A stretch of DNA of 13,478 nucleotides from Methanobacteriota archaeon (GTDB taxonomy: Archaea > JACRDV01). How positions within the stretch are numbered: the stretch's first letter is position 1; each line of letters opens with the position of its first letter. Under the pieces are notes generated by a model. It was not told where the DNA came from, searched no databases, and saw nothing but the letters and a program-made list of their open reading frames with translations. The translations under genes were made by a program, and so were the position numbers. The stretch is taken from NCBI GenBank assembly GCA_024860865.1, contig JACRDV010000047.1:1-13478 (forward strand). The letters run 5' to 3'. Positions 1 through 12,997 of this stretch are shown here, in pieces.

Positions 1-231
1 ATCGTGATTCGAGTAAAATATTTATTCGCTAATTCATAACTAATGTTTCAATATATTTTAAAAATTATTTATTGATGATACCTTGCCCCTTTCATCTATT
101 ATGGTTAACTGGAATTAAGTTAACTTTTTTTCATTTTTTTCTGTTATGCTATTCGCCATTTTACACCTTTATTGTTTGGGATGAACGATATTTTTTATTG
201 AACAAAAAGTTTTCTTATGAGAAATTTCAGG

Positions 232-333
232 CGCCCCAGTCGGGATTCGAACCCGAGTCGCAGGCTCGACAGGCCTGCATTCTAGGCTTGAACGTGCAAT
301 CCAAGACTTCCTAGGCCTCTAGACTACTGGGGC
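232..333 (-). tRNA. tRNA-Asp (anticodon GUC) with a 29-nt non-canonical intron in the D-arm (between positions 24/25)
   Basis: Minus-strand read: acceptor GCCCCAG/CTGGGGC, discriminator G, T-arm TCGGG-TTCGAAT-CCCGA, anticodon arm CAGGC-CTGTCGA-GCCTG. The gene is 102 nt. Removing 280..308 gives a 73-nt cloverleaf with D-stem GTCT/GGAT (G10:U25). CC but no full CCA is encoded. Confidence 0.9.
280..308 (-). other. tRNA-Asp intron (BHB-bounded, 29 nt)
   Basis: Central 4-bp helix CUAG/CUAG. 3-nt bulges GAA (5' strand) and AAU (3' strand). Inner helix G(U)CUUG/CAAGC. Outer helix of only 2 bp (GC/GC). Cutting after the 2nd bulge nucleotide on each strand gives the canonical cloverleaf. Confidence 0.75.
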
Positions 334-355
334 ACAAAATAAAGTAATTTGAGAT

Positions 356-363
356 AATTTAAA
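356..363 (-). promoter_or_regulatory. TATA box (TTTAAATT) at -30..-23 of tRNA-Asp
   Basis: Same octamer at the same distance as upstream of the 5S gene. Typical archaeal TATA spacing. Confidence 0.5.
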
Positions 364-366
364 AAC

Positions 367-699
367 CTATCGTGCCTTGGCCTTAACTCCTTTCACACGG
401 GGAGGTTTTGTGGTTAAAAGGGTTTTTAAGCCAGTCGCTTCTTTAACAAAAGAATTATACCGATTAATCGCATCTTTAAACATCTCTGGATTTACCCCTT
501 CAGTCTGAGTTTCAGTTTGGCAAAAAAGTTTCTCTTCTTGCACTTCTACCACAAGTTTTCTCAAAGCTCCATAATTTTCCATGACATTTTTTCCATCATC
601 TGTCTCGTAGATCTTTGAGTTTGGAAAGTATTTTTGAAGAAGGCCGGGGATTTCTCTTAAAACGCTTTTATAACCTTTCTTAAGAGAATAACCTTTCAT
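367..699 (-). CDS. hypothetical protein (110 aa, basic C-terminus)
   Basis: Intact ORF with protein-like composition, co-oriented between the tRNA-Asp and 5S genes. I recognise no family. Confidence 0.5.
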   Translation of the reverse strand: MKGYSLKKGYKSVLREIPGLLQKYFPNSKIYETDDGKNVMENYGALRKLVVEVQEEKLFCQTETQTEGVNPEMFKDAINRYNSFVKEATGLKTLLTTKPPRVKGVKAKAR

Positions 700-724
700 G
701 CAAAGCCCCGAAATAATAATTAGT

Positions 725-878
725 GGGCTGGCAGCTATCTAGGCTTCGCGTAGGCTCTCGCACTACACTACCACCTAGAACGTGGGCGGACTTAACTTCC
801 GGGATCAGAACGAGTCCGGGTCTAGCCCCGCCACTGTGGCCGTTCAAATCAATGAACTATGGCCGCCATACCCAGCCC
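725..878 (-). rRNA. 5S rRNA, 154 nt as encoded, with a 23-nt BHB-bounded insert near the 5' end
   Basis: Minus strand contains GGCGGCCAT...AGTGGCGGGGCTAGACCCGGACTCGTTCTGATCCCGGAAGTTAAGTCCGCCCACGTTCTAGGTGG...GCCTAGATAGCTGCCAGCCC. The conserved CCCGGAAGTTAAG core is present. Terminal helix is GGGCTGG/CCAGCCC plus GGCGGC/GCTGCC. Confidence 0.92.
836..858 (-). other. putative intron or insertion within the 5S rRNA (AGTTCATTGATTTGAACGGCCAC)
   Basis: 4-bp helix GGCC(861..864)/GGCC(838..841), flanked on opposite strands by 3-nt bulges AUA and ACA. Then a 5-bp helix GUUCA/UGAAC with a 6-nt loop. Excision restores the canonical GGCGGCCAU-AGUGGCGGGG. Confidence 0.5.
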
Positions 879-900
879 ATTTAAAGGTTAAAAGTTGTTT

Positions 901-908
901 AATTTAAA
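901..908 (-). promoter_or_regulatory. TATA box (TTTAAATT) at -30..-23 of the 5S rRNA
   Basis: AT-rich upstream region. Octamer and spacing are identical to the tRNA-Asp promoter. Confidence 0.5.
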
Positions 909-940
909 TTTTTCTTTAGTCAATTTCAGTATCAAATAAG

Positions 941-1256
941 TGGTCCCGGCAGTCGGATTTTCATTCAAGAGGTATTAAGCTATTAATCCTGCTAATGTAT
1001 TTCACTCTTGTTCGCAGCTTTCTTTTGATATGTACACATTTCTTAAAATTTTAGAAATGCTTTTATGGCGATTTCATGCTTGACACGAACTCTATTTGCC
1101 TCCGGATACTTGCCCTTTCGCGTTCCTTTGCACCAATATAATATGGTTCCAATTGATCCCAGTTCTTCTTCATCATTTATGATTTGCCTCTTGAAATTTG
1201 AACCGACGACCAAGCGGTCTACAGCCGCCCGCTCTGCCAGGCTGAGCTATGCCGGG
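941..1256 (-). tRNA. tRNA-Tyr (anticodon GUA) with a 239-nt intron in the T-loop (59/60); CCA encoded
   Basis: 5' exon 1197..1256: CCCGGCA-TA-GCTC-AGCCTGGCA-GAGC-G-GGCGG-CTGTAGA-CCGCT-TGGTC-GTCGG-TTCAAA. 3' exon 941..957: T-CCGAC-TGCCGGG-A-CCA. It has C1:G72 and A73, the archaeal/eukaryal Tyr identity set. Confidence 0.9.
958..1196 (-). other. tRNA-Tyr intron, 239 nt, canonical hBHBh' motif
   Basis: Outer helix h is GUCGG/CCGAC (the T-stem). Central helix H is UUCA/UGAA (4 bp). Both bulges are AAU (3 nt). Inner helix h' is UUCAAGAGG/CCUCUUGAA (9 bp). Cutting after the 2nd bulge nucleotide yields the T-loop UUCAAAU. Confidence 0.85.
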
Positions 1257-1282
1257 ATATTAATTATATTTAGAAGAAGCGC

Positions 1283-1289
1283 TTTTAAA
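1283..1289 (-). promoter_or_regulatory. TATA-like box (TTTAAAA) about -33..-27 of tRNA-Tyr
   Basis: AT-rich element at a plausible archaeal distance from the mature 5' end at 1256. Confidence 0.4.
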
Positions 1290-1339
1290 TTATTTTTGTT
1301 AACAGTTTTTTTATAAATCAGGACTTTTGGAGGATAATT

Positions 1340-1861
1340 TTGGAACTATTTGAAGCAATTAAAAACAGGCGCAGTATAAGGGCTTTTAAGGACAAACCAG
1401 TTCCTGAAGAAAAACTGATGAAAATTTTAGAGGCAGCTCGCTGGGCTCCCTCAGCCGGCAACCTCCAGGCTTGGGAATTTATTGTGGTTAAAGAGCAGAA
1501 GCTTAAGGAACAAGTTGCAACAGCCGCTTTATCCCAATGGTTTATCGCTGAGGCACCTGTAGCTGTTGTGGTATGTGCGAACCAAAACCGCTCTGCAAGG
1601 AGATATGGTGAGAGGGGAAGAGAGCTATACTCAATACAAGATGCGACCTTAGCAACGCAAAATATGATACTAGCAGCCCATGCAGAGGGATTAAGCTCTT
1701 GCATAGTAGGGGCTTTCTATGAAGAAGAAGTTAGAAGAGTCCTAAAAATCCCTGAAGGAGTGAGGCCAATAGCAATTATACCAATTGGATACCCTGGTGA
1801 AAGGCCAGAAGCACCAGAGAGATATGAGTTAAGCAAAGTTGTCCATCGCAACGGATACTAG
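1340..1861 (+). CDS. nitroreductase-family flavoprotein (173 aa)
   Basis: N-terminus MELFEAIKNRRSIRAF, then WAPSAGNLQAW and a C-terminal IPIGYP, typical of the nitroreductase fold. TTG start with GGAGG 6 nt upstream (1329..1333). Confidence 0.85.
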   Translation: MELFEAIKNRRSIRAFKDKPVPEEKLMKILEAARWAPSAGNLQAWEFIVVKEQKLKEQVATAALSQWFIAEAPVAVVVCANQNRSARRYGERGRELYSIQDATLATQNMILAAHAEGLSSCIVGAFYEEEVRRVLKIPEGVRPIAIIPIGYPGERPEAPERYELSKVVHRNGY

Positions 1862-2589
1862 GCTTGATAGGCCTCTTCGCCAGGAAATATTGCAATGCCT
1901 TCTGGAGTAATTTCAAATGGATATCTTCGCGTGCTGTGTTTTATCCCCCTCATCTTTAACACAATTAAGTTTCTCTTCAGTTCTGCTCCAATTTCACTCA
2001 AAGAAAAATTAACAATGCCGTGGCAAATAAACTCTTCAACTCCAAATTTGCTAATCCTTTGGCCATTTGCTTCCGTAGTCATTAAAGTTGTGCAACCAGT
2101 ATCCTCAAGTAGCGCCCCTAATCTTAAAAGCTCACGGCGCAAAGCGATTGGGGTGTCATACTGCAACATCAAAGCTGGTAGCGAGTCTACCACTATTCTT
2201 TTTGCATTTATTTTTTGAACAATATTGTCAATTGTTGTAATTAAAGAATCGACATCAGAAGGTTTAGTTATGATGTATTTTTCATTGCTTGGGACTCCTA
2301 GGCGTGCCGCTGAGGCATCAATAATTGCGAGCTTATTTTGCTCCTCCAGCTTCTTAAGATCCCAACCAAAATTGCTTATGAATCTTCGGATATCTTTTGG
2401 GCGCTCTTCTAAAGCAACAAAAATTCCAGGCTCTTTGAATTCGATGACTCCTTTATACAAGAATTGCACACAAAATATGCTCTTGCCAGTTCCAGTTCCT
2501 CCAGAGACCAAGATAATCGACCCTGCTGGGAAACCACCGCCTATTATAGTATCTAGGCCTAAAACTCCAGTTTTAGAACGATCGACCAC
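1858..2589 (-). CDS. single-domain KaiC/RecA-superfamily ATPase (243 aa)
   Basis: Walker A GGTGTGKS. Layout LGLDTIIGGGFPAGSIILVSG...IVVDS...LKMRG matches the KaiC-like family. GTG start preceded by AAGGAG. Its stop overlaps the nitroreductase stop (CTAG). Confidence 0.85.
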   Translation of the reverse strand: MVDRSKTGVLGLDTIIGGGFPAGSIILVSGGTGTGKSIFCVQFLYKGVIEFKEPGIFVALEERPKDIRRFISNFGWDLKKLEEQNKLAIIDASAARLGVPSNEKYIITKPSDVDSLITTIDNIVQKINAKRIVVDSLPALMLQYDTPIALRRELLRLGALLEDTGCTTLMTTEANGQRISKFGVEEFICHGIVNFSLSEIGAELKRNLIVLKMRGIKHSTRRYPFEITPEGIAIFPGEEAYQA

Positions 2590-2819
2590 TTAAATCTCCT
2601 TGAAATTTATTGTGATTAAAATCTACAACCGGTTTTTTATAATTTTTCATTTTATCTTCATAATTTAGGTTTGTTTGTTCTTTAAATCATTTAAAACGGA
2701 TAGAATTACCCCTTCGTTTACTACAATGTCTTACCTTTGTCAATAACCGCTAAGAAAGCCTATGCATAGTTTTTTATAAACTCAATATATTATTCTAAGA
2801 CTCACAGGAGTTTGAGCCA

Positions 2820-3929
2820 TTGCACCCAGCTGGTCTCGTGCGCACTGCAAAGGATGAAGGTTTTGCCTCCCTTGAAGGCAGAGTAGTTTTATCTGGCCTC
2901 TGTTATAGCTGTGGATTGTGTGTTGCAGTTTGTCCCGAAAATGTAATAGAAATGATTGTTGAAATGCCGACTTTAAAAGGGAACTGCACCCATTGTGGAG
3001 ACTGTTTTGTAGAATGTCCTAAAAGTTATCTTCCCATTAAAGAGATTCAAGAGAATTTATTTGGAGACACTCAATCCTTTGAACAATCTATTGGATATTA
3101 TCAAAAAATATTTAGCGCTCAAACCAAGCGAAAAAAAATTCTTGGTGTATCACAGTCTGGTGGAGTTGTAACAACTCTGCTAACTTCAGCTCTTGACCAG
3201 AACTTGATCAATGGAGCACTCGTAACTGCTTTGGAAGGGGAATGGGGACCTAAGCCCACAATCGCCAGAACCTATCCAAAATTGTTGGAATCTGCGCGCT
3301 CAAAATATACTGTGAATTCAATTCTAACGGCACTAAAAGAAGTTGGGGCAGAAGATGAAATTGCAGTAGTGGGATTACCTTGTCATGTTCAAGCGCTCAG
3401 AAAACTTCAAGTAAGTTCATCTTCGCCTAAGATTTTGAATCGAATAAAAATTTTAATTGGTCTTTTTTGCTCTTCTAGCTTCACTTCTTCATTTTTAGAA
3501 TATATTAGAAAGAAAAATAGCATAGAGTTATCTCAAATTAAAAAATTCGATATAAGCAAAGGCAATGTATACTTAACCGTTGGAGCCGAAAAAATTTGTT
3601 TTCCTTTGAAGGAAGTGAGCCCTTACAAACCAACAGGTTGTAGGCTTTGTTTCGATTTCACATCTGAGCTTGCAGATATTTCAGTAGGTTCAGAAGGAGC
3701 GCAAACAGATTGGTCAGCTGTTATAATAAGAACCGAAAAAGGTCTAGAATTTTTTGAGCAATGCCAAGATTGCTTTAAAATTTCTAATGAAGTCGACTTA
3801 GAGACTATAAAAAAGCGGGCAACGAAAAAGAAACTAAGTTTTCAAAAAGATGCGAATAAATTGATAAGCAAATCGCTCAACTTCCCATTAAAGACGCTTT
3901 TCGATTTTTCAAGGGAATTTAAATTTTAG
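2820..3929 (+). CDS. FrhB/FdhB-family (F420 hydrogenase/dehydrogenase beta-like) Fe-S flavoprotein with N-terminal 2x[4Fe-4S] domain
   Basis: CYSCGLCVAVCP and CTHCGDCFVECP, then SQSGGVVTTLL, GLPCHVQAL, GLFCSS and CRLCFDFTSELADISVG. TTG start with AGGAG 9 nt upstream, so the exact start is uncertain. Confidence 0.8.
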   Translation: MHPAGLVRTAKDEGFASLEGRVVLSGLCYSCGLCVAVCPENVIEMIVEMPTLKGNCTHCGDCFVECPKSYLPIKEIQENLFGDTQSFEQSIGYYQKIFSAQTKRKKILGVSQSGGVVTTLLTSALDQNLINGALVTALEGEWGPKPTIARTYPKLLESARSKYTVNSILTALKEVGAEDEIAVVGLPCHVQALRKLQVSSSSPKILNRIKILIGLFCSSSFTSSFLEYIRKKNSIELSQIKKFDISKGNVYLTVGAEKICFPLKEVSPYKPTGCRLCFDFTSELADISVGSEGAQTDWSAVIIRTEKGLEFFEQCQDCFKISNEVDLETIKKRATKKKLSFQKDANKLISKSLNFPLKTLFDFSREFKF

Positions 3930-3931
3930 GC

Positions 3932-3936
3932 AAAAA
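3932..3936 (-). terminator. oligo-T tract (TTTTT) directly after the mvhD stop; possible operon terminator
   Basis: Minus strand reads TAA-TTTTTG. Archaeal termination commonly uses T-runs. The gap to the convergent gene is only 7 nt. Confidence 0.35.
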
Positions 3937-4341
3937 TTATTTCTTTAGTGGGTTAGGGCCTATCTCAGTTATCTCTTCTGTAAACTCCTTAACAACACTC
4001 GCGAATTTTGCTCCTTCAGATGCAGAAACCCACTCTAACCTTAATCTTTCAGAGCCGAATCCAACTAATTCTAAAATTTGTTTTAAATCATTAATTCTCT
4101 TCTCAGCCTTCAGGTTTCCATCGCTGTAATGGCAATCACCCGGATGACAACCACAGACTAGAACTCCATCTGCACCTAACTCAAAGGCCTCAAGTATAAT
4201 AGCTGAGTCAACTCTGCCGCTGCACATCACTCGAATAACCCTTATTGAAGGGGGATATTGGAATCTACTAACGCCAGCTGTATCTGCCCCTCCGTATCCG
4301 CACCAGCTGCAGAGGAAGGTGACTATTTTTGGATATTTCAC
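3937..4341 (-). CDS. mvhD: MvhD-type [2Fe-2S] subunit, all-Cys version (134 aa)
   Basis: FLCSWCGYGGADTAG...RVMCSGRV...GVLVCGCHPGDCHY is the methyl-viologen-reducing hydrogenase delta subunit signature. GTG start 2 nt after the hdrA stop. Confidence 0.85.
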   Translation of the reverse strand: MKYPKIVTFLCSWCGYGGADTAGVSRFQYPPSIRVIRVMCSGRVDSAIILEAFELGADGVLVCGCHPGDCHYSDGNLKAEKRINDLKQILELVGFGSERLRLEWVSASEGAKFASVVKEFTEEITEIGPNPLKK

Positions 4342-4343
4342 AA

Positions 4344-7300
4344 TTATTCCTCTAAGAATGCCTTTACCATTGAGCGAATTTGAATCGTTTCAAATCCTTT
4401 CTGTGAAAGTGCACCAGTAGGACATGTTGGAACACAGCCACCACAACCTTTGCAGATTACCTCTTCAACGTCAGCTTTTGAAATACCAGGTTTAATTTCT
4501 TTAAGTTTTATAGCATTGAATGAACAAATTTTTACGCACTGGCCGCATCCGATACAGACATCGATGTCGACAAACGTTGTAAGAGCTTCAAGTTTAATTT
4601 TCCCTTTTGCCATCGGGACAATTGCTCTAGATGCAGCTCCGCATGCTTGTGAAACAGAATCTGTAATATCCTTTGGGCCTTGGGCACATCCGCATAAGTA
4701 AATTCCATCGGACATGAATTCAACTGGTCTTAACTTGGCATGTGCTTCTGCAAAAAAACCGTCCGGGCTTCTAGGAACTTTTAGTGTTTTAGATAATGTT
4801 TCGGCATCTTCGGTTGGAACCAGAGGAGTTGAAAGTATAATGTAATCAGCATCTAGTTCAATTTCTCGCCTTAACACGTTATCGAAAACAAGCACCTTGC
4901 CATCATTTACAGAGGGTGGTTTTTCCGGCTCGTATTTTAGGAAATTGACGCCTATTTCCTGTGTTTTTTCATAGTATTCTTCATGCTTCTTTCCAAAACT
5001 TTGGATATCTCGATAGCAGATAGAAACATCACAATTTGGATACATTTCCTTTATTGTTTGTGCATTTTTTAATGCAACTGCACAACAAACTCTAGAGCAG
5101 TAAGTCCTTCCATTTTCTTCGCGCGCCCCTACACATTGAATCATAACAATATTCTTAGGGTTCTTAAGTTCATGGTTAGCAAGCTTTTGTTCTAGTTCAA
5201 GTTGAGTCATAACATTTGGATGTTTACCATAACCAAACATACCATTCGGTTTGAATTCTTGAGAACCAGTTGCAACAACTATTGTTCCAACTTTAACTAA
5301 AATATCTTGGTCTTCTCTTGAAATTTTCACGTCGAAATTTCCGATATATCCAACTACTTCTTTAACTGTTGAAGAAGTTAAAAGCTCGATGTTATTGTGT
5401 TCCTTTACTTTTTTAATAATTGGCTCGAGAACATCCTTTGAGTATCCATTGGTCGGGAATACTTTATAGATTTCTTTTAACAATCCTCCTGGTTCGGATT
5501 TTTTATCCACCAAATAGACCTTAAATCCTTGGTCAGCTATGTTCAGTGCAGCCATCATACCTGAGATTCCAGCTCCAATTACAAGGGCAGAGGGTATAAC
5601 TGGAATTTCCTTTTCTTCTTGCGGCCTGAGTAATCTTGCTTTTGCAGCCGCCATTCTTAGCTGATCTTTTGCTCGTTCGGTTGCTTCTTGCGGCTCATGC
5701 GTGTGAACCCAAGAAGAGTGTTCTCGGATGTTTGCCATTTCAAAGAGATACGGATTTAATCCGCCTTCTTTTAGCGTTCCTCTGAACAATACTTCGTGAG
5801 TTCTTGGAGTGCAGGAGGCAACTACAACTCGATTTAGGTTATAATCATTAATTGCCTTCTTAATTTGAGTTTGAGCATCATCAGCACAAGCATACACGGT
5901 ATTAGTTGCATAAACAACATTTGGCAAAGATTTTGCGTGATTAACAACTTCAGGAATGTTAACAACGCCTGCTATGTTAGTTCCGCAATGACAGACAAAA
6001 ACTCCAATTCTCGGTTCTTCTTCTATAGTTACCAATTTTTCAAGTGGAAATATTTTCTCTTTAATTAAGGTACCTCTAGCTTCAGCAATCGGAATGACTG
6101 CTCTAGCTGCCGCCCCACTCCCCTGTGCGACAGAGTCCGGGATATCTTTAGGTCCTTGAGCAGTTCCGCAAATGTAGATGCCAGGTATTGCTGTATCCAT
6201 TGGAGCTGTTTTCAAGTCTTTTTCTTTAAAAAATCCGTTCTCATCGAGCTCAGTATTTAAAATTTGAGCTAGTTTTTCGGCATTATTTTGTTTGACTAAA
6301 CCACAAGAGAGAACAACCATATCGGCTTCAAATTTTTTGTATTCGCTTGTTACAGTATCAATATATTTTATTATGAGATTATTTGTTTTTGTATCCTCTT
6401 GTATATCGGATACTCTGGCACGAATGTAGTTTATTCCATATTCATCTCGAGCGCGCTGGACATATTCTTGAAATGCCTTTCCATATGCTCTGAGATCCAT
6501 AAAGAAAATTGTAATTTCTAAATTTCGATTGTGCTCTTTTGCAATTATTGCCTCCTTTGTTGCATACATGCAGCAGACTCTGGAGCAGTATGGATTTCCG
6601 ATTTTTTCATCTCTTGAGCCGACACATTGGATAAAAGCAATGTTTTTTGGCTCCTGACCGTCAGAAAACTTGATAACGTGACCCTGCGTGGGTCCACTTG
6701 CACTGAGTAACCTCTCAAATTCAAGCGAGGTGATTACATTTTTGTAAATTCCAAATTTATAGACAGATTTTTTAGCAGCATCAAAAACAGCATGGCCTGT
6801 TGAAACTATTATAGCTCCGACATTAATTTGGATCTCTTGTGGCTCTTGCTGGAAGTTAATCGCTTTTTTATCGCACACAAATTCACAGCTTCGACATTCG
6901 ATGCAAAAGTCCTTGTAAATTGTATAAACAGCTGGAACAGCTTGGGGAAATGGCAGCCCAATTACTTTTTGAGCTCCAATATTTGAGTCAAATTCATTCG
7001 GAATCAGCACCGGGCATTTCTCTGCGCATAAGCCGCAGCCATTGCAGGTCTTCTCATCGACATACCTTGGGTTTTTCTGGATTTTTATGCGGAAGTTGCC
7101 GACATGGCCTTTGACCTCCTTAACTTCAGCATAGGTTATTAGCTCGATGTTGGGGTGCCTTGCAACTTCTACCATTTTTGGAGCCAAAATACACATTGAG
7201 CAATCGTTTGTTGGGAAAGTCTTATCAAGCTGAGCCATTCCCCCTCCGATGCTTGGATTTTTTTCAACAAGGTAAACTTTGAGACCAGATTCAGCTAGAT

Positions 7301-7379
7301 CAAGGCTAGCTTGAATCCCAGAAACTCCTCCGCCAATGATTAATACAGCGCCAACATAATTCTTGGTCAATGTTCTCAA
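4344..7379 (-). CDS. hdrA: tandem HdrA-HdrA fusion protein (1011 aa), all-Cys
   Basis: Residues about 1-440: FAD domain (IIGGGVSG, FPTNDCSMCILAPKM, inserted CNGCGLCAEKCP/CIECRSCEFVC ferredoxin, YCSRVCC). Residues about 455-1011: second HdrA unit (VFVCHCGTNIAG N-domain, IGAGISG, YCSRVCC, C-terminal CIGCGQCVKIC/CKGCGGCVPTCP). The TTG start overlaps the upstream TGA stop (TTGA). Confidence 0.85.
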   Translation of the reverse strand: MRTLTKNYVGAVLIIGGGVSGIQASLDLAESGLKVYLVEKNPSIGGGMAQLDKTFPTNDCSMCILAPKMVEVARHPNIELITYAEVKEVKGHVGNFRIKIQKNPRYVDEKTCNGCGLCAEKCPVLIPNEFDSNIGAQKVIGLPFPQAVPAVYTIYKDFCIECRSCEFVCDKKAINFQQEPQEIQINVGAIIVSTGHAVFDAAKKSVYKFGIYKNVITSLEFERLLSASGPTQGHVIKFSDGQEPKNIAFIQCVGSRDEKIGNPYCSRVCCMYATKEAIIAKEHNRNLEITIFFMDLRAYGKAFQEYVQRARDEYGINYIRARVSDIQEDTKTNNLIIKYIDTVTSEYKKFEADMVVLSCGLVKQNNAEKLAQILNTELDENGFFKEKDLKTAPMDTAIPGIYICGTAQGPKDIPDSVAQGSGAAARAVIPIAEARGTLIKEKIFPLEKLVTIEEEPRIGVFVCHCGTNIAGVVNIPEVVNHAKSLPNVVYATNTVYACADDAQTQIKKAINDYNLNRVVVASCTPRTHEVLFRGTLKEGGLNPYLFEMANIREHSSWVHTHEPQEATERAKDQLRMAAAKARLLRPQEEKEIPVIPSALVIGAGISGMMAALNIADQGFKVYLVDKKSEPGGLLKEIYKVFPTNGYSKDVLEPIIKKVKEHNNIELLTSSTVKEVVGYIGNFDVKISREDQDILVKVGTIVVATGSQEFKPNGMFGYGKHPNVMTQLELEQKLANHELKNPKNIVMIQCVGAREENGRTYCSRVCCAVALKNAQTIKEMYPNCDVSICYRDIQSFGKKHEEYYEKTQEIGVNFLKYEPEKPPSVNDGKVLVFDNVLRREIELDADYIILSTPLVPTEDAETLSKTLKVPRSPDGFFAEAHAKLRPVEFMSDGIYLCGCAQGPKDITDSVSQACGAASRAIVPMAKGKIKLEALTTFVDIDVCIGCGQCVKICSFNAIKLKEIKPGISKADVEEVICKGCGGCVPTCPTGALSQKGFETIQIRSMVKAFLEE
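7036..7105. repeat. 70-nt block identical to 10091..10160 (copy 1, in tandem hdrA)
   Basis: Direct comparison shows cagccattgcaggtcttctcatcgacataccttgggtttttctggatttttatgcggaagttgccgacat in both paralogues. Confidence 0.95.
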
Positions 7380-8449
7380 CCTGATTTTTTAAGATTCCTT
7401 TGTGCTATTTGAAAGAGTGAACTTATTGGCAAACGGGGTGGGCACACGACATCGCAGGCTCCGCAGTTAGTACATGTTTCAGCTATGTGAAGTAAGCGAA
7501 TTAAATGAACTTGGGACTTATCTAAAGCCTTGCCTTCTTTCTTTAATATGCACAGCTTGCAAATACATAATGGGCAAGCCCTCACGCAAGCGAGACATTT
7601 AGTACATTTAGAGAAAAGCTTTCCATCCCACCAATATTTTAGTTTCTCACTATCGCTTAATTTTAAAAACTGCTCCTCAATTTCGCTTAAGATGTTTTCA
7701 GCTTGTCTTTGGATCTTATTTTTGAATTCATTGATAAAGTTAACAGCATTACCGTTTGGTTCAAATGAATATCCAGTATCTTCAAGTATTTTTTTAATGG
7801 AAGGATTCAAAACTTCAATAAAGAATTGAGAATTCGGCAATTGATAAATGAAAAGATCAGATCCACTCGAGGAAATCTTATCAAAGCAATGTTTGCAATT
7901 TGAACGAACTAGAACTCCTTTTTCTTCGAGTTCCTTAATTGAAAAATTTTTAGATTGGCCATCATCCAGTGTTAAGTGAAGGAATTCCTCATCAATTCGC
8001 TCGGACTTGATGGGTTTTTGTCCAATTATTTCTTCCAGTTTTTTAGCTGTTTTTACATTGATTGTTCCAAAACAGGATAATCCGACTATATAACCATTAA
8101 ATGAGTACCCTTTCTTCTTTAACTCATCAATTGCTTTGATATCGCAGGGCTTGGCAAACATCAAAAAATTTTTTGAATTTTTAATTGGTGTTAAATACAA
8201 ATACTTAGCCAAGTTCCCGTATAGTGATGGATAATAGCAATTAAAGGCAGAGACATTAAACTCAGATAATTTTTTCTCATCTTCAATTAGAATTGGTTTT
8301 ACTTCAAAATGAGACTTCTGTTTTTGAAAAATAACGGCACTATCAACTACTTTACTCTTTAAAGCGCTTTCAGCTAACTTTAAGATGAAATCATACAATT
8401 TTTCAGGGCGATCTAATTTTAGTTTAAGAACCTCTGGCAATAAAGCCAT
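7376..8449 (-). CDS. FrhB-like domain fused to an HdrC-like 2x[4Fe-4S] domain (357 aa)
   Basis: LAESALKSKVVDSAVI, AKPCDIKAI, GLSCFGT and CKHCFD parallel the FrhB motifs of the two neighbouring paralogues. The C-terminus has CTKCLACVRACP...CTNCGACDVVCP with the long spacer seen in HdrC-type proteins. Confidence 0.65.
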   Translation of the reverse strand: MALLPEVLKLKLDRPEKLYDFILKLAESALKSKVVDSAVIFQKQKSHFEVKPILIEDEKKLSEFNVSAFNCYYPSLYGNLAKYLYLTPIKNSKNFLMFAKPCDIKAIDELKKKGYSFNGYIVGLSCFGTINVKTAKKLEEIIGQKPIKSERIDEEFLHLTLDDGQSKNFSIKELEEKGVLVRSNCKHCFDKISSSGSDLFIYQLPNSQFFIEVLNPSIKKILEDTGYSFEPNGNAVNFINEFKNKIQRQAENILSEIEEQFLKLSDSEKLKYWWDGKLFSKCTKCLACVRACPLCICKLCILKKEGKALDKSQVHLIRLLHIAETCTNCGACDVVCPPRLPISSLFQIAQRNLKKSG

Positions 8450-8482
8450 CTCCTGCTTATGAAGCGAGTCGCAAGGAGGACC

Positions 8483-8899
8483 TTACGGCTTTCCCTCCGA
8501 GCTCACCCTCTTTAGAGGATTCTCACCAAGTTTTGAGAGTTTTTCAACTGCAGCATTGGCAGACTTCGCAAATTTGTCAGCATCCGCGGCAGAAAGGAGC
8601 AACACTTCAATCCGTTCGCCTAGGCCGATTGGAGCCAATATCTTTTTTGCAAGATCGACTTTTTGTTCCGCCAAAATGTTTCCATGTTTATAGTCGCAAT
8701 CGCCTTTTGTTCAGCCAATGACTAGAACTCCATCCATACCTTTTGTTAGAGCTCTAGCAATGTGGTTCACGCTTACTCTGCCTGCGCATGGGAATCTTAA
8801 GACTTTGAGCACAGCTGAGTATTGCTTTTTGACAGTACCAGCCAAGTCTGCTGCAGCATAACCTCATTTATAGCAAGCAAAAGCAACCATGTTGAGCAT
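8483..8899 (-). CDS. vhuD: VhuD/MvhD-like selenoprotein (138 aa) with two in-frame UGA (Sec12, Sec63)
   Basis: Reading through TGA at 8864..8866 and 8711..8713 gives MLNMVAFACYKUGYAAADLAG...GVLVIGUTKGDCDYKHGN. Both U align to Cys of the MvhD at 3937..4341 (FLCSWCGYGGADTAG; VLVCGCHPGDCHYSDGN). There are no other stops. ATG start with GGTGA 5 nt upstream. Confidence 0.85.
8711..8713 (-). other. UGA read as Sec63 of the VhuD-like protein
   Basis: Aligns to the second Cys of the CGC motif in the Cys paralogue. Confidence 0.8.
8864..8866 (-). other. UGA read as Sec12 of the VhuD-like protein
   Basis: Aligns to the Cys of the WCGYGG motif in the Cys paralogue. Confidence 0.8.
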
Positions 8900-8907
8900 T
8901 TTCTCAC

Positions 8908-10833
8908 CTATTGTGCCAAAGCATCAATTTGTGCATCAATTTGTGCATCTCTGTAGTATCGCAGAGTTATTGAGCTCGAAGGACAAACACCGGCACAAGA
9001 TCCACAGCCCTTACAAAGAATTTCGTCGACTACTGCCTTTTGGTTTTCAATTCTGATAGCATTGAAGGGGCAAGCATTTGCACAAAGTCCGCAGCCAACA
9101 CAGTTTTCTGTATCTACCAAAGCGCGAATGAGTTCAATTTCGACCTTACCTGCTATTAATGGATGTAAGGCAGTGACAGCAGCTGCTTGAGCTTGTGAAA
9201 CAGCATTAGCAATTGATTTTGGCCCAGCAGCGCACCCGCAGATAGAAACACCATCTATCCGTGTCTTAACTGGAGCCAATGCATAGTGGAACTCTTTAAA
9301 AAAGCCATATGAATCGATTTCAAGTCCAAGCATATTAGAAATTTCTCTTGCGCTCGGGTTCGAAAGCATAGCAGTTGATAGAACAACTAGATCTACTGTA
9401 TCATTGATTAATGTTTGGCGTAAAGTATCTTCGGCGTATATAGTCAGGCTCCTTGTTTCTGGGTCCTCTAGTATCTGGCCTATCTTACCCCGAACGAATT
9501 TAATGCCGAAGTCTTTTGAACGCATGAAGTATTCTTCGTTTAACTTTTCTTCTGCTCTAACATCGATATAGTAGATAGTGAGTTCGATCTCAGGATGATG
9601 TTGCTTGACGAGAGTTGCATTTTTTATTGCTACCATACAGCAAACAGTGGAGCAGTAAGGTTGAGAACGCAGATCTCTTGATCCGACGCACTGTATGAAG
9701 GCTATTTTCTTCACTTTTTTGCCGTCGGAAATCCTTACCAGTTCCCCTTCAGTCGGTCCGTTTGGGCTGAGAAGTCTTTCAAGTTCAAACTCTGTAATCA
9801 CATTGGGATAAGTGCCATATCCATAGTAACTTGGCTTATAAACCTCGAGTCCAGTAGCCACGATAATTGTTCCAATCTCGAGTTCGATCTCTTGTGGTTT
9901 TTGATTGAAGTCAATTGACTTTTTCTCGCAAACAAGTTCGCAACTTCGGCACTCTGTGCAAAATTCCTTTTCAATCGCATAGATTGCTGGAACTGCTTGA
10001 GAGAAAGGTAACCCAATTACCTTCCTTGCCCCTAGATTCGCATCGAATTCGTTTGGAATCAGCACTGGGCATTTCTCTGAACAAAGTCCACAGCCATTGC
10101 AGGTCTTCTCATCGACATACCTTGGGTTTTTCTGGATTTTTATGCGGAAGTTGCCGACATAACCGGTGATCTCTTTTACCTCGGCGTTTGTAATTAACTG
10201 AACATTTGGATGCTTTGACGTCTCCACCATTTTTGGAGCTAGAATTCACATTGCACAATCGTCAGTTGGAAAGATCCTGTCGTATCCTGCCATTCTTCCG
10301 CCTATGCTGGTTTTTTTCTCCACGAGGTAAACTTTGAATCCTCGGTTGGCAATATCGATGGCAGCTGTCATTCCAGCTATTCCTCCGCCGATAATTAGTG
10401 CTGTAGGTGTTACTGGGACTTCCTTTATTGGCACCTCTTCTAAATTTTTGGCCCTAGCGATCCCGGCCTTGACCAAAGAAATTGCTTTATCAGTTGCTTC
10501 CTTCGGTGTCTCTCTGTGCACAAATGAACAATGTTCCCGCAAGTTTACCATTTCAAAGAAATATTGGCTCAACCCAGCGCGCTTGAGAGCATTGCGGAAT
10601 GTTATTTCGTGCATTTTAGGGGTACAAGAAGCAACCACAACTCGATTTAGTCCCTGTTCCTTGATGTCTTTGATAATACCGTCCTGAGAAGGATCTGCGC
10701 ACATAAAGGTCTCACTTCTAGCCACCGTTACACTTGGAATCGATTTAACTGAGTTCATAACTTGCTCGACGTTCACTATACTGCCAATGTTAACTCCTCA
10801 TTTGCAGATGTAAACTCCCACTTTGGGTTCCAT
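8908..10833 (-). CDS. hdrA: HdrA (heterodisulfide reductase subunit A-type FAD/Fe-S protein), selenoprotein with two in-frame UGA (Sec12, Sec196), 641 aa
   Basis: Joins track ORFs 8908..10230 and 10246..10776 with 10777..10833. MEPKVGVYICKUGVNIGS aligns to EPRIGVFVCHCGTNIAG, and FPTDDCAMUILAPKMVE aligns to FPTNDCSMCILAPKMVE of the Cys paralogue. Full HdrA architecture: N-domain, FAD domain, inserted ferredoxin, C-terminal ferredoxin. ATG preceded by GGAGGTGGAGA. Confidence 0.88.
10091..10160. repeat. 70-nt block identical to 7036..7105 (copy 2, in Sec-hdrA)
   Basis: Direct comparison. Flanking sequence is diverged at most synonymous sites. Confidence 0.95.
10246..10248 (-). other. UGA read as Sec196 of HdrA
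   Basis: Aligns to the last Cys of DCSMC in the Cys paralogue. Confidence 0.85.
10798..10800 (-). other. UGA read as Sec12 of HdrA
   Basis: Aligns to the second Cys of the CHCG motif in the N-terminal Fe-S domain of the Cys paralogue. Confidence 0.8.
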
Positions 10834-10843
10834 TCTCCACCTC

Positions 10844-11896
10844 CTATTTGCTTGCCTTCTTCTTCGAAGCTGTTTTGTTGAGTTCATCTAAATTGACTTG
10901 ATCTGAGACTTCAATTAAGCCAGCTTTCTTAACTTCGTTGATTAATTCTGCACCCTTTTTAGAGCGTATGACTAAAGTCGACCAACGGTCTGGTGAACCC
11001 ACACTTCCAACTGATACATCAGCTAACTCTGCTGTAAAATCGGTGCACTTATGACAAGCATTTACTACACAGTCCATAAATTCTCTAACTTTTTTCTCAT
11101 GTACTCCTTCCTTTGTAGCGAAAATAAATTTGCCTTTTGTAATATTGGCTTTGATAAGTTTGTCAAAATCAATGTTAAACAAGTTTTTGACCTTAGTTCG
11201 TAATTTTTCATAAACAAAATTTTCATAACAGAATAGACCGATTGTTGTGATATCAATTCCATCGAACTTCTTGAAGAAATTTAACTGCAAATTTCTTGAA
11301 CCGCTAATTTGGCAACCCGTTCCAACCAGTATCATTTTTTTAAGTTTTTGTTCCATGATTGCTTTTCCAAGCACTTTGACCACCGGAGAGTTTGTGTATT
11401 TCGAGCCAGCAGAAGGAAGAAGCTGCTCCAAAGAAGTTGCTACATATGATTTTGGTCGCCAAGGTTCAACCCCATCTTTGCCAGTAACTATGGCTCCATC
11501 TACTAGTTTATTTTGAAGCGCATGAGCCAAAATCGTGGTTACGATACCGCCATCTTGTGAAATGTTCCCAATTTCAGAGCGCGTAGTTCGTGCGGCAGCA
11601 ATTTTAATGAATTTTCCGACCTGCTCACTTTTTGTACCTTCTAAGAAATTTTTCTCGATAGTATCGGTTGGGGTCTTTACCTTTGGGCAATTCTCGTAAC
11701 ACATACCATCGATTTCGCACTGAATTGCACCCACTTTAATTGTGCAATCTTTTACTAAGATTGGGTCATCGTAATTGATATCAATTCTATTACAAAGAGC
11801 AGAGCAGGTTCCACATCTGGAGCAAAGATTTTGGTCAATTATTTTTTTCTTTAACTCTTCATATCCAAGACTTTTTTTCATCAATGGAACTAGCAA
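10844..11896 (-). CDS. FrhB/FdhB-family Fe-S flavoprotein (about 345-350 aa)
   Basis: CSRCGTCSALC, SQDGGIVTTILAHAL, GTGCQISG, GLFCYEN and CHKCTDFTAELADVSVGS. The track start is TTG at 11896, abutting the upstream stop. An ATG at 11881 (MKKSLGY) is an equally plausible start. Confidence 0.8.
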   Translation of the reverse strand: MLVPLMKKSLGYEELKKKIIDQNLCSRCGTCSALCNRIDINYDDPILVKDCTIKVGAIQCEIDGMCYENCPKVKTPTDTIEKNFLEGTKSEQVGKFIKIAAARTTRSEIGNISQDGGIVTTILAHALQNKLVDGAIVTGKDGVEPWRPKSYVATSLEQLLPSAGSKYTNSPVVKVLGKAIMEQKLKKMILVGTGCQISGSRNLQLNFFKKFDGIDITTIGLFCYENFVYEKLRTKVKNLFNIDFDKLIKANITKGKFIFATKEGVHEKKVREFMDCVVNACHKCTDFTAELADVSVGSVGSPDRWSTLVIRSKKGAELINEVKKAGLIEVSDQVNLDELNKTASKKKASK

Positions 11897-12997
11897 TTAC
11901 CTCAACCCCTCAAAGTGGCTTGAAATAAAGCTGGTTAGATCTTGGACCTTTAAATTAGTATTTTTCATGGCTTCTTCGCTCAAAAGGCAGTTTAAGTGAA
12001 TGTTACACTTTGGACAAGGCACTATCAGGCTTTCGACTTTGGCTTTTCTAGCGTCGTTAATTTTTTGAGTTCTAATCAGCTTTGAATTTTCATCGCAGTT
12101 CATCCAAGCGCTCACACCGCAACACAATGAGTTTTCCCTCCTTCTCATTATTTCAGTGAAGTTAGTTCCTGCTATTGCTTTTATAATTTCTCTTGGAGAA
12201 TCATATACATTCAAGTGCCGGCCAAGTCTGCAAGAGTCATGATAACCAATTTTTATTTCAGATGGCTTAAACCGAAGATTTGGGAAATGTTTCTCTAGAA
12301 ACTCGGATATAAACAAGACTTCAATATTAAAATCAAATTTTTCATAATCAATTTTCAGGGTTCTATAGCATTCTGCGCAAGTCGTTATAATTTTTTTAAC
12401 TCCGCTAGCTTTTATCATTTCAATATTCTGTTTAGCAAGATTTTCAAATATTTGATATTCCCCGCGCCAAAAAGCATCATGACCACAGCATTTTGTTCTT
12501 AAAAGAACAGGTTCAATTCCAAGTTTGTTTAAAATTGAGAGGGCGTCTTGCACAATCTTCTTTCCATCAAAACCAATGTCTTTAAAAAATATATCTAAAT
12601 AAGGCAAACATCCGATAAAATATCCTATATCATTATTTTCGCTAGTTTTGTAACCCGAAGGCAGCCATATTTTCAATCGTGGCCAAATTTTATTTGACAC
12701 CATTATTTTATCTAAAAAATGGAAAAATCCTTTATGAGCGAAACAAAAAGGGTCTTCTTTTAGACCAGCTCGTTCTTCACGAACAGCCTCGGGTAAGTTG
12801 ATCTGCATTGGACAATTGGTATAGCAAGCTGCACAAGTTAAACACTGTTTTAAAAAATCTTTCGATATAGTATAACCTATGCTCGTGCCGTATACTGCTA
12901 TCCTAGGCGAAAATAATTTGAGGTCAGTAAAAAGCGGGCAGTTTCCTGAACAAACTCCGCACTGAGCGCATGTATTTGGGTTATATTTAATTGTCAT
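11897..12997 (-). CDS. hdrD: HdrD-like protein: HdrC-type 2x[4Fe-4S] domain fused to two CCG (HdrB-type) cysteine-rich domains (366 aa)
   Basis: CAQCGVCSGNCP...CLTCAACYTNCP, then the CCG motifs KCCGHD and LCCGVS with CAEC/CPKC. First gene of the operon, with no SD, so probably leaderless. Confidence 0.8.
   Translation of the reverse strand: MTIKYNPNTCAQCGVCSGNCPLFTDLKLFSPRIAVYGTSIGYTISKDFLKQCLTCAACYTNCPMQINLPEAVREERAGLKEDPFCFAHKGFFHFLDKIMVSNKIWPRLKIWLPSGYKTSENNDIGYFIGCLPYLDIFFKDIGFDGKKIVQDALSILNKLGIEPVLLRTKCCGHDAFWRGEYQIFENLAKQNIEMIKASGVKKIITTCAECYRTLKIDYEKFDFNIEVLFISEFLEKHFPNLRFKPSEIKIGYHDSCRLGRHLNVYDSPREIIKAIAGTNFTEIMRRRENSLCCGVSAWMNCDENSKLIRTQKINDARKAKVESLIVPCPKCNIHLNCLLSEEAMKNTNLKVQDLTSFISSHFEGLR

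Follow-up and report, generated by a model that had tools for sequence, protein, structure and literature searches.

A 13,478-nt contig of an uncultured Methanobacteriota archaeon (JACRDV010000047.1, assembly GCA_024860865.1), the whole of which is referred to here as the window, carries on its minus strand a 5S rRNA gene whose loop A is interrupted by 23 nt. Judging from sequence and predicted structure, these 23 nt (858..836) probably form a relaxed bulge-helix-bulge (BHB) mini-intron in a functional 5S rRNA gene, cut out by the splicing endonuclease EndA with religation of the exons. A syntenic 5S gene from a relative has no insert at this site and a different one in helix III. Introns cut by EndA are known from tRNA genes, from 16S and 23S rRNA genes and from a few mRNAs, and 5S rRNA is, to our knowledge, considered intron-free in all domains and is not known to depend on EndA for its maturation in archaea. 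With the inserts in the window and in the relative, introns have probably been seen for the first time in a 5S rRNA gene. It is also fairly likely that a deep-branching, barely sampled archaeal lineage possesses 5S genes with spliced BHB mini-introns, located in loop A or in helix III in close relatives, and that these are the first in any domain. The first-pass annotation of the window, made from the sequence alone, was aware of no described 5S intron; none was found in the searchable literature on EndA substrates, archaeal rRNA introns and circular RNAs or in the survey of 5S insertions, a negative that is provisional, coverage being incomplete.

The insert and its bulge-helix-bulge borders

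Read on the minus strand, positions 878..725 begin with GGGCUGGGUAUGGCGGCCAU, the insert AGUUCAUUGAUUUGAACGGCCAC and AGUGGCGGGG, with sequence and coordinates just as the first-pass annotation had laid them out, and excision of the insert joins GGCGGCCAU to AGUGGCGGGG. That annotation had also predicted that removal would leave a canonical 5S junction. The junction obtained, GGCCAUAGUGG, agrees with the Rfam consensus ggcCAUAgcgg; the relative reads exactly the predicted GGCCAU|AGUGG without interruption, and folding of the spliced RNA gives a canonical 5S structure. Assembly did not create the insert, which recurs unchanged in two independent Logan assemblies from other runs, L003 (ERR3478701, with single-nucleotide polymorphisms in the flanks) and L004 (SRR12113407).

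The BHB layout used was h1-H1(4)-bulge(3)-h'1 ... h'2-H2(4)-bulge(3)-h2, with the cut placed after the second bulge nucleotide, a register calibrated on the strict BHB of the tRNA-Tyr gene in the same window. Around the 5S insert, a 4-bp GGCC/GGCC central helix is bordered by 3-nt bulges, AUA and ACA, on opposite strands, and these lead into a 5-bp helix closed by a 6-nt loop; every element of the geometry proposed in the first pass could be recovered (Table 1). The central helix has a probability of 0.99 in the predicted pre-5S ensemble. While the inner helix h' has 5 bp, the outer helix h consists of one C:G and one G:U pair and competes with helix II, which gives the motif the relaxed form; the first pass had itself drawn attention to this short outer helix. 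The predicted cut sites, at symmetric bulge positions, coincide with the exon borders, both here and in the insert of the relative.

Helix I has two mutually exclusive registers. One of them, GGGCUGG/CCAGCCC plus UGGC/GCUG, is compatible with the BHB, and the GGCC/GGCC helix is seen to stack on it in the predicted pre-5S fold; the other, UGGGU-A-UGGCGGC/GCUGCCA-GCCCA, would form after removal of the insert. In this folding model, the two registers may represent a conformational switch coupled to splicing.

Table 1. Coordinates of the 5S rRNA gene, its putative intron and the flanking tRNA genes in the window
Feature	Position	Strand	Remarks
5S rRNA gene (pre-5S)	about 879..724	minus	Rfam RF00001 match; spliced fold; includes the 5-bp helix I extension
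Exon 1, UGGGCUGGGUAUGGCGGCCAU	859..879	minus	helix I 5' strand UGGCGGC (868..862) and start of loop A
Exon 2, beginning AGUGGCGGGG	724..835	minus	remainder of loop A, helices II-V, helix I 3' strand
Helix I extension, 5 bp	UGGGU 874..870 with GCCCA 728..724	minus	covaries with the relative
Putative BHB intron AGUUCAUUGAUUUGAACGGCCAC, 23 nt	836..858	minus	in loop A; absent from the syntenic 5S gene of the relative; in-register BHB found by script
H1, central helix, exon strand, GGCC	864..861	minus	shares 3 nt with the helix I 5' strand
Bulge 1, AU|A	860..858	minus	predicted 5' cut U859|A858
h'1, GUUCA	857..853	minus	intron hairpin 842..857, 5-bp helix
Hairpin loop, UUGAUU	852..847	minus	
h'2, UGAAC	846..842	minus	3' strand of the intron hairpin
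H2, central helix, intron strand, GGCC	841..838	minus	
Bulge 2, AC|A	837..835	minus	predicted 3' cut C836|A835
Outer helix h	C865:G834 and G866:U833	minus	2 bp only
TATA-like box AUUUAAAUUAA	899..909	minus	about 21-31 nt 5' of the first G of the gene; same distance in the relative
tRNA-Tyr(GUA) gene	941..1256	minus	intron of 239 nt (1196..958) at about 59/60; strict hBHBh', h = 5 bp, h' = 9 bp
tRNA-Asp(GUC) gene	230..333	minus	D-arm intron of 29 nt (308..280) at about 24/25; H = CUAG/CUAG, h = 2, h' = 2

A relative with a different insert

The DUF5611 protein encoded next to the 5S gene has only two homologues among 5.8 billion proteins, of which one is the protein itself and the other, with 72% identity, is encoded on a 2.5-kb ENA contig (L002, sample ERZ4756919). 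This contig is syntenic with the window, with a nitroreductase gene (72% identical), a 5S gene and the DUF5611 gene. The 5S gene of L002 (Rfam, 50.9 bits) lacks the 23-nt insert. At the corresponding site it reads GCGGCCAUAGUGGCGGGG without a break, GUAUAGCGGCCAUAGUGGCGGGG is the junction predicted for the window, and exon 1 of the window aligns to its uninterrupted 5' end, GUAUAGCGGCCAUAG. It does possess an insert of its own, 20 nt in helix III, where Rfam skipped about 24 nt. The layout of this second insert is CCUG-GAA-CAGCU-UUU-AGCUG-CAGG-AAA-GUU (h = 3, H = 4, h' = 5), and cutting in the same register yields CCUGGA|AGUUAAG, i.e. the conserved 5S region CCUGGAAGUUAAG, for which the window has CCCGGAAGUUAAG and the Rfam consensus CggAAguUAAG. 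Comparison with the 5S gene of a relative had been proposed in the first pass as a check on its intron interpretation, and the outcome, an uninterrupted site together with a different in-register insert, supports that interpretation.

Between the window and this single relative, the presence of each insert is thus sporadic and its position variable. Since the inserts vary in position, can be excised precisely and are bounded by BHBs, their pattern points to the behaviour of introns rather than that of an expansion segment.

Weight of the motif and of its register

Several points weigh against splicing. BHB-like motifs of equal quality (h>=2, h'>=5, length 14-40) number 15 in the window, counting two strands, versus 11.5 in shuffles, i.e. 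they occur at chance frequency. The outer helix of the 5S motif has just 2 bp, one of them G:U, and we know of relaxed BHBs being cut only by broad-specificity endonucleases. In the relative, only a minority of the predicted ensemble adopts the BHB fold (p = 0.25). Moreover, this is the one informative relative: scans of genome_contigs and metagenome_contigs with the 19-mer AGTTAAGTCCGCCCACGTT returned no other close 5S gene. The matches listed from genome_contigs were distant or irrelevant (a Methanoperedens fragment, a Thermoplasmata metagenome-assembled genome (MAG), Methanonatronarchaeales and a chance bacterial match), those listed from metagenome_contigs comprised one Thermoplasmata-like contig, and the contigs of nitroreductase homologues (<=65% identity) contained neither synteny nor a 5S gene. 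The unspliced RNA is itself predicted to keep helices II-V, with helix I in an alternative register. Finally, insertions of 13-109 nt that stay in the 5S rRNA are on record (PMC7812874), and the insert of Halococcus morrhuae is reported to be accommodated in a four-way junction (PMC7530397).

With the count at the level of the shuffles, rarity of the motif was dropped as an argument; relaxed BHB motifs are abundant in any case, at about 1000 per strand where introns of up to 400 nt are allowed. An in-register test was used instead, in which random or shuffled inserts of the given length were placed at the site and scored by whether a BHB cut restores the consensus. At the site in the window, an in-register BHB (h>=2, h'>=3) arises in 1e-3 of random or shuffled inserts, and in 1.5e-4 at the observed quality. 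At the helix III site of L002, the rate is 0.5-0.8e-3, falling to 7e-5 at the observed quality. The two in-register inserts are independent events. The significance therefore lies in the coincidence of the cut sites with insert borders defined by homology, and not in the motif. The first-pass annotation had presented the geometry as that of a splicing-endonuclease substrate; that geometry is confirmed, and what is statistically unusual about it is the register, which fits the borders of the insert, and not the motif by itself.

Conservation of the fold and of the 5' end

With the inserts removed, the genes from the window and from L002 share the canonical three-way-junction 5S fold. Of its 45 pairs, 10 have undergone compensatory double changes, and no pair is broken. 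One of the ten lies in helix I (G-C to A-U), and two are in the 5-bp extension upstream of the insert. In L003, a one-sided U-to-C change in the helix I extension makes a U:G pair into C:G. Because compensation extends to helix I and to the extension upstream of the insert, the covariation indicates that both 5S genes are under structural selection and that exon 1 is part of the RNA. Exon 1 forms helix I with GCUGCCA (735..729), a helix of 7 bp and -11.9 kcal/mol, or of 12 bp and -19.8 kcal/mol when the extension is included.

Identification as a 5S rRNA is secure at the level of the Rfam covariance model, RF00001 matching 847..727 with 64.5 bits against a gathering threshold of 38. This alignment spans the full 120-position model, with its start falling in the insert and two helix I positions mispaired. 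The reason for this start is that the insert's 3' end, CGGCCACAGU, mimics the end of exon 1, CGGCCAUAGU. Helix I built from this intron-internal look-alike would have 4 bp (-4.1 kcal/mol). The position of the TATA-like box, set against the distance expected between an archaeal TATA box and the transcription start, suggests that transcription probably starts just before exon 1, i.e. upstream of the insert. In the window and in L002 alike, the 5S gene gives way to a T-rich run on its 3' side.

Introns in the flanking tRNA genes

The register applied to the 5S gene also accounts for the two flanking tRNA genes. ARAGORN calls zero tRNAs in the raw window; once the BHB inserts are removed in the same register, it recognises both tRNA-Tyr(GUA) and tRNA-Asp(GUC), as the first pass had expected. 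The tRNA-Tyr gene contains a strict hBHBh' motif, with H = UUCA/UGAA, both bulges AA|U, an h' of 9 bp and the 5-bp T stem as h. The tRNA-Asp gene, which Rfam matches over model positions 10-63 only, has a BHB (h = 2, h' = 2) weaker than that of the 5S gene (h = 2, h' = 5). Because the tRNA-Asp motif is so weak, the sequence implies that this organism has to be able to process BHBs at least as poor as that of the 5S gene. Non-canonical positions of tRNA introns are associated with heterotetrameric or epsilon-2 endonucleases. From the weak outer helix of the 5S motif, in combination with tRNA introns at the non-canonical positions of about 24/25 and 59/60, we infer a need for a broad-specificity EndA.

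The tRNA-Asp and 5S genes have in common that the intron closes with a copy of the exon 1 3' terminus (GCCUAG.AA and CGGCCAYAGU, respectively) and that the central helix is palindromic (CUAG and GGCC). For this reason, Rfam settles in either gene on the copy inside the intron, and ARAGORN comes up blank. An origin of the insert by tandem duplication was considered and is not supported, similarity between exon 1 and intron beyond the BHB core being non-significant (p = 0.03-0.28). The tRNA-Tyr intron (958..1196, minus strand) is unusually long and holds an AUGAUGA (C-box-like) motif and a 37-codon open reading frame (ORF), MMKKNWDQLEPYYIGAKERERASIRRQIEFVSSMKSP; a permissive Rfam scan of 1..1400 gave no family match to it even at E<=1.

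Alternative explanations

Four alternatives to a spliced intron were weighed. The first is that the 23 nt are retained as an expansion segment, an extra hairpin that converts the three-way junction at loop A into a four-way junction. The retained insertions on record and the predicted survival of helices II-V in the unspliced RNA, where the insert helix forces helix I into another register, are in its favour, but we consider it unlikely. The insert is absent from L002, whose own insert lies elsewhere, and both inserts are bounded by in-register BHBs. The insert helix would also tie up 3 nt (GGC) of the helix I strand along with conserved loop A residues. The insert of L002, for its part, falls in a conserved region of the molecule. 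An expansion segment would be looked for at a lineage-conserved, sterically free site, whereas the sites found are loop A here and helix III in L002; tolerance has been reported in archaea for a single site, 104.1-105 (PMC7812874).

A second alternative accepts the cut and dispenses with ligation, leaving a two-piece 5S rRNA made of a 5' fragment of about 21 nt and a body of about 112 nt, held together by the 12-bp extended helix I. Such a molecule would resemble the fragmented bacterial rRNAs that result from excision of intervening sequences. The BHB evidence bears on it exactly as it does on splicing, and the extended helix I, at -19.8 kcal/mol, could hold the pieces. Against it, the insert of L002 lies in the middle of the molecule, where the fragments would be held less simply, and archaeal exons cut by EndA are normally ligated. 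A two-piece product seems quite improbable.

Thirdly, there may be no splicing at all, with the mature 5' end lying inside the insert at 847 (UUGAACGGCCACAG) and the upstream sequence constituting a trimmed leader, a decayed partial duplicate. The full-length RF00001 alignment to 847..727, above the gathering score, and the resemblance of the insert's end to that of exon 1 could be read in this way. However, helix I would then be reduced to its 4-bp version, compared with 7-12 bp from exon 1. It is exon 1, and not the look-alike, that aligns with the 5' end of the L002 gene, and its pairing with the 3' end covaries, five extra upstream pairs included. A TATA-like box is kept about 26 nt 5' of exon 1 in both genomes, and the insert of L002 would be left unexplained. 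A start at 847 is thus very unlikely. Finally, a pseudogene, i.e. a decaying 5S copy with a chance insertion and a normal 5S gene elsewhere in the genome, would be compatible with a view limited to one contig, where other 5S copies are possible, but is scarcely credible in light of the 10 compensatory changes and 0 broken pairs relative to L002, the conserved synteny, promoter-like box and T-rich 3' flank, and the identical sequence in independent samples.

Relation to known systems

Archaeal BHB introns occur in 16S and 23S rRNA genes, for instance those of Thermoproteales (PMC4496867, PMC6125680). Like these, the 5S inserts interrupt an rRNA gene, form a BHB between exon and intron, vary in presence and position among relatives, and are presumed to depend on EndA and ligation. 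They differ in that the host is the 5S gene, that the inserts are only 23 and 20 nt long and contain no ORF, that the outer helix is marginal, and that the BHB competes with the mature helix I. A second point of reference is provided by tRNA introns at non-canonical positions with a relaxed BHB (HBh'), which are processed by a broad-specificity EndA (heterotetrameric or epsilon-2). The 5S inserts match these in size range (about 15-30 nt), geometry and register, and two such tRNA introns flank the 5S gene in the window; the substrate, by contrast, is an rRNA, and the enzymatic pathway would presumably be shared. EndA is used in rRNA maturation also through the BHBs that flank rRNAs. Those motifs enclose and release a whole rRNA, whereas the BHB in the 5S gene is internal and would remove an insert. 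According to the literature on rRNA circularisation, which describes no 5S intron either, 5S rRNA does not take the BHB route.

The 5S inserts also invite comparison with expansion segments, such as the 108-nt insert of H. morrhuae, in that extra nucleotides appear in an otherwise canonical 5S gene. They depart from them in their site (loop A, or helix III in L002), in the absence of conservation between relatives and in their in-register BHB borders. Known archaeal 5S expansions are confined to Halobacteriales and to the one site 104.1-105, and are retained in the ribosome (PMC7812874). The first pass had mentioned large 5S insertions in some haloarchaea; the insertions at that site and the H. 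morrhuae insert are of this kind (PMC7812874, PMC7530397). The authors of the same survey, Stepanov and Fox 2021, caution that genomic 5S insertions might be excised (PMC7812874). New in the present case are the 5S host gene, the tiny size of the inserts and the competition with a core helix; the BHB machinery and motif are already known.

Two further types of unusual 5S gene were seen among the contigs. Thermoplasmata-type 5S genes with an insert of about 105 nt in the helix V 3' strand are present on a contig of a GTDB MAG (L007, DASQXV010000158, about 4137..4362, plus strand) and on a JGI contig (L009, about 40..275, minus strand). The insert lies between GGGAAGC and AUGGAAC-GCUGUC and resembles the Halococcus-type site 104.1-105, reported so far only in Halobacteriales. 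The true helix I 3' strand is found about 110 nt past the end of the Rfam match and covaries between the two genes; no in-register BHB borders were found for these inserts of about 105 nt. In a Methanoperedens MAG (L005), a small ORF is followed directly by an isolated 5S 3' half (4380..4445, minus strand); the complete 5S gene of the rRNA operon (5061..5182) is some 600 nt away.

Genomic neighbourhood and lineage

On the minus strand, the left end of the window contains, in order, tRNA-Tyr, the 5S gene, the DUF5611 gene (699..367) and tRNA-Asp. Past the RNA genes are a nitroreductase, a KaiC-like ATPase and redox genes of Frh/Hdr/Mvh type. The cluster at 1858..12997 encodes the KaiC-like ATPase, three FrhB/FdhB-like proteins, MvhD, a 1011-aa fused HdrA-like protein, a ferredoxin and CCG-domain (HdrB/C-like) proteins. 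A 128-aa ORF (1318..1704, minus strand) lies antisense to the nitroreductase gene (1340..1861, plus strand); it matches nothing in Pfam and is in all likelihood spurious.

The best non-self match of the HdrA-like protein among 5.8 billion proteins is no more than 56% identical, and its matches carry a mixture of names (Asgard, Bathyarchaeia, Hydrothermarchaeota and "Euryarchaeota"). Matches to the nitroreductase at 60-65% identity carry mostly Thermoproteota names. The archaeal lineage is very poorly sampled, because even the best match of the HdrA-like protein reaches only 56%; its placement is uncertain, as is the label 'Euryarchaeota archaeon' under which NCBI lists the MAG proteins, including MCS4541226.1.

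Proposed pathway and implications

From the sequence, we infer cleavage, ligation and the enzymes involved. Transcription of pre-5S RNA would begin at about 879, ahead of the insert, from the gene's own TATA-like promoter. In this precursor, the GGCC sequences at the ends of exon 1 and of the intron would pair with each other, creating the 4-bp central helix and the bulges AUA and ACA, with the intron hairpin serving as the inner helix. The weak outer helix (C:G plus G:U) would probably be helped by stacking on the alternative register of helix I (GGGCUGG/CCAGCCC plus UGGC/GCUG). EndA would then cut after the second nucleotide of each bulge, at U859|A858 and C836|A835, and an RtcB-type ligase would join the exons into GGCGGCCAU-AGUGGCGGGG, the 23-mer probably being circularised. 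Once released, the GGC of exon 1 would complete the canonical 7-bp helix I (12 bp with the extension), which is the mature register.

Splicing of these inserts, if it takes place, adds the third rRNA to the substrates of EndA and RtcB. Splicing would also explain why standard tools mis-annotate this locus, Rfam being anchored inside the intron and ARAGORN missing both tRNAs, and 5S "expansion segments" known from genomics only would need to be checked for BHB borders. It would further follow that 5S genes gain or lose EndA-dependent introns over short evolutionary periods, and two intron positions in two close relatives offer a compact system for intron gain and loss. The same pair, the window and L002, could reveal how pairing between exon and intron competes with folding into the mature form. 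Since the intron, if real, masks part of a core helix until its removal in either gene, splicing could act as a checkpoint in the folding or assembly of 5S rRNA.

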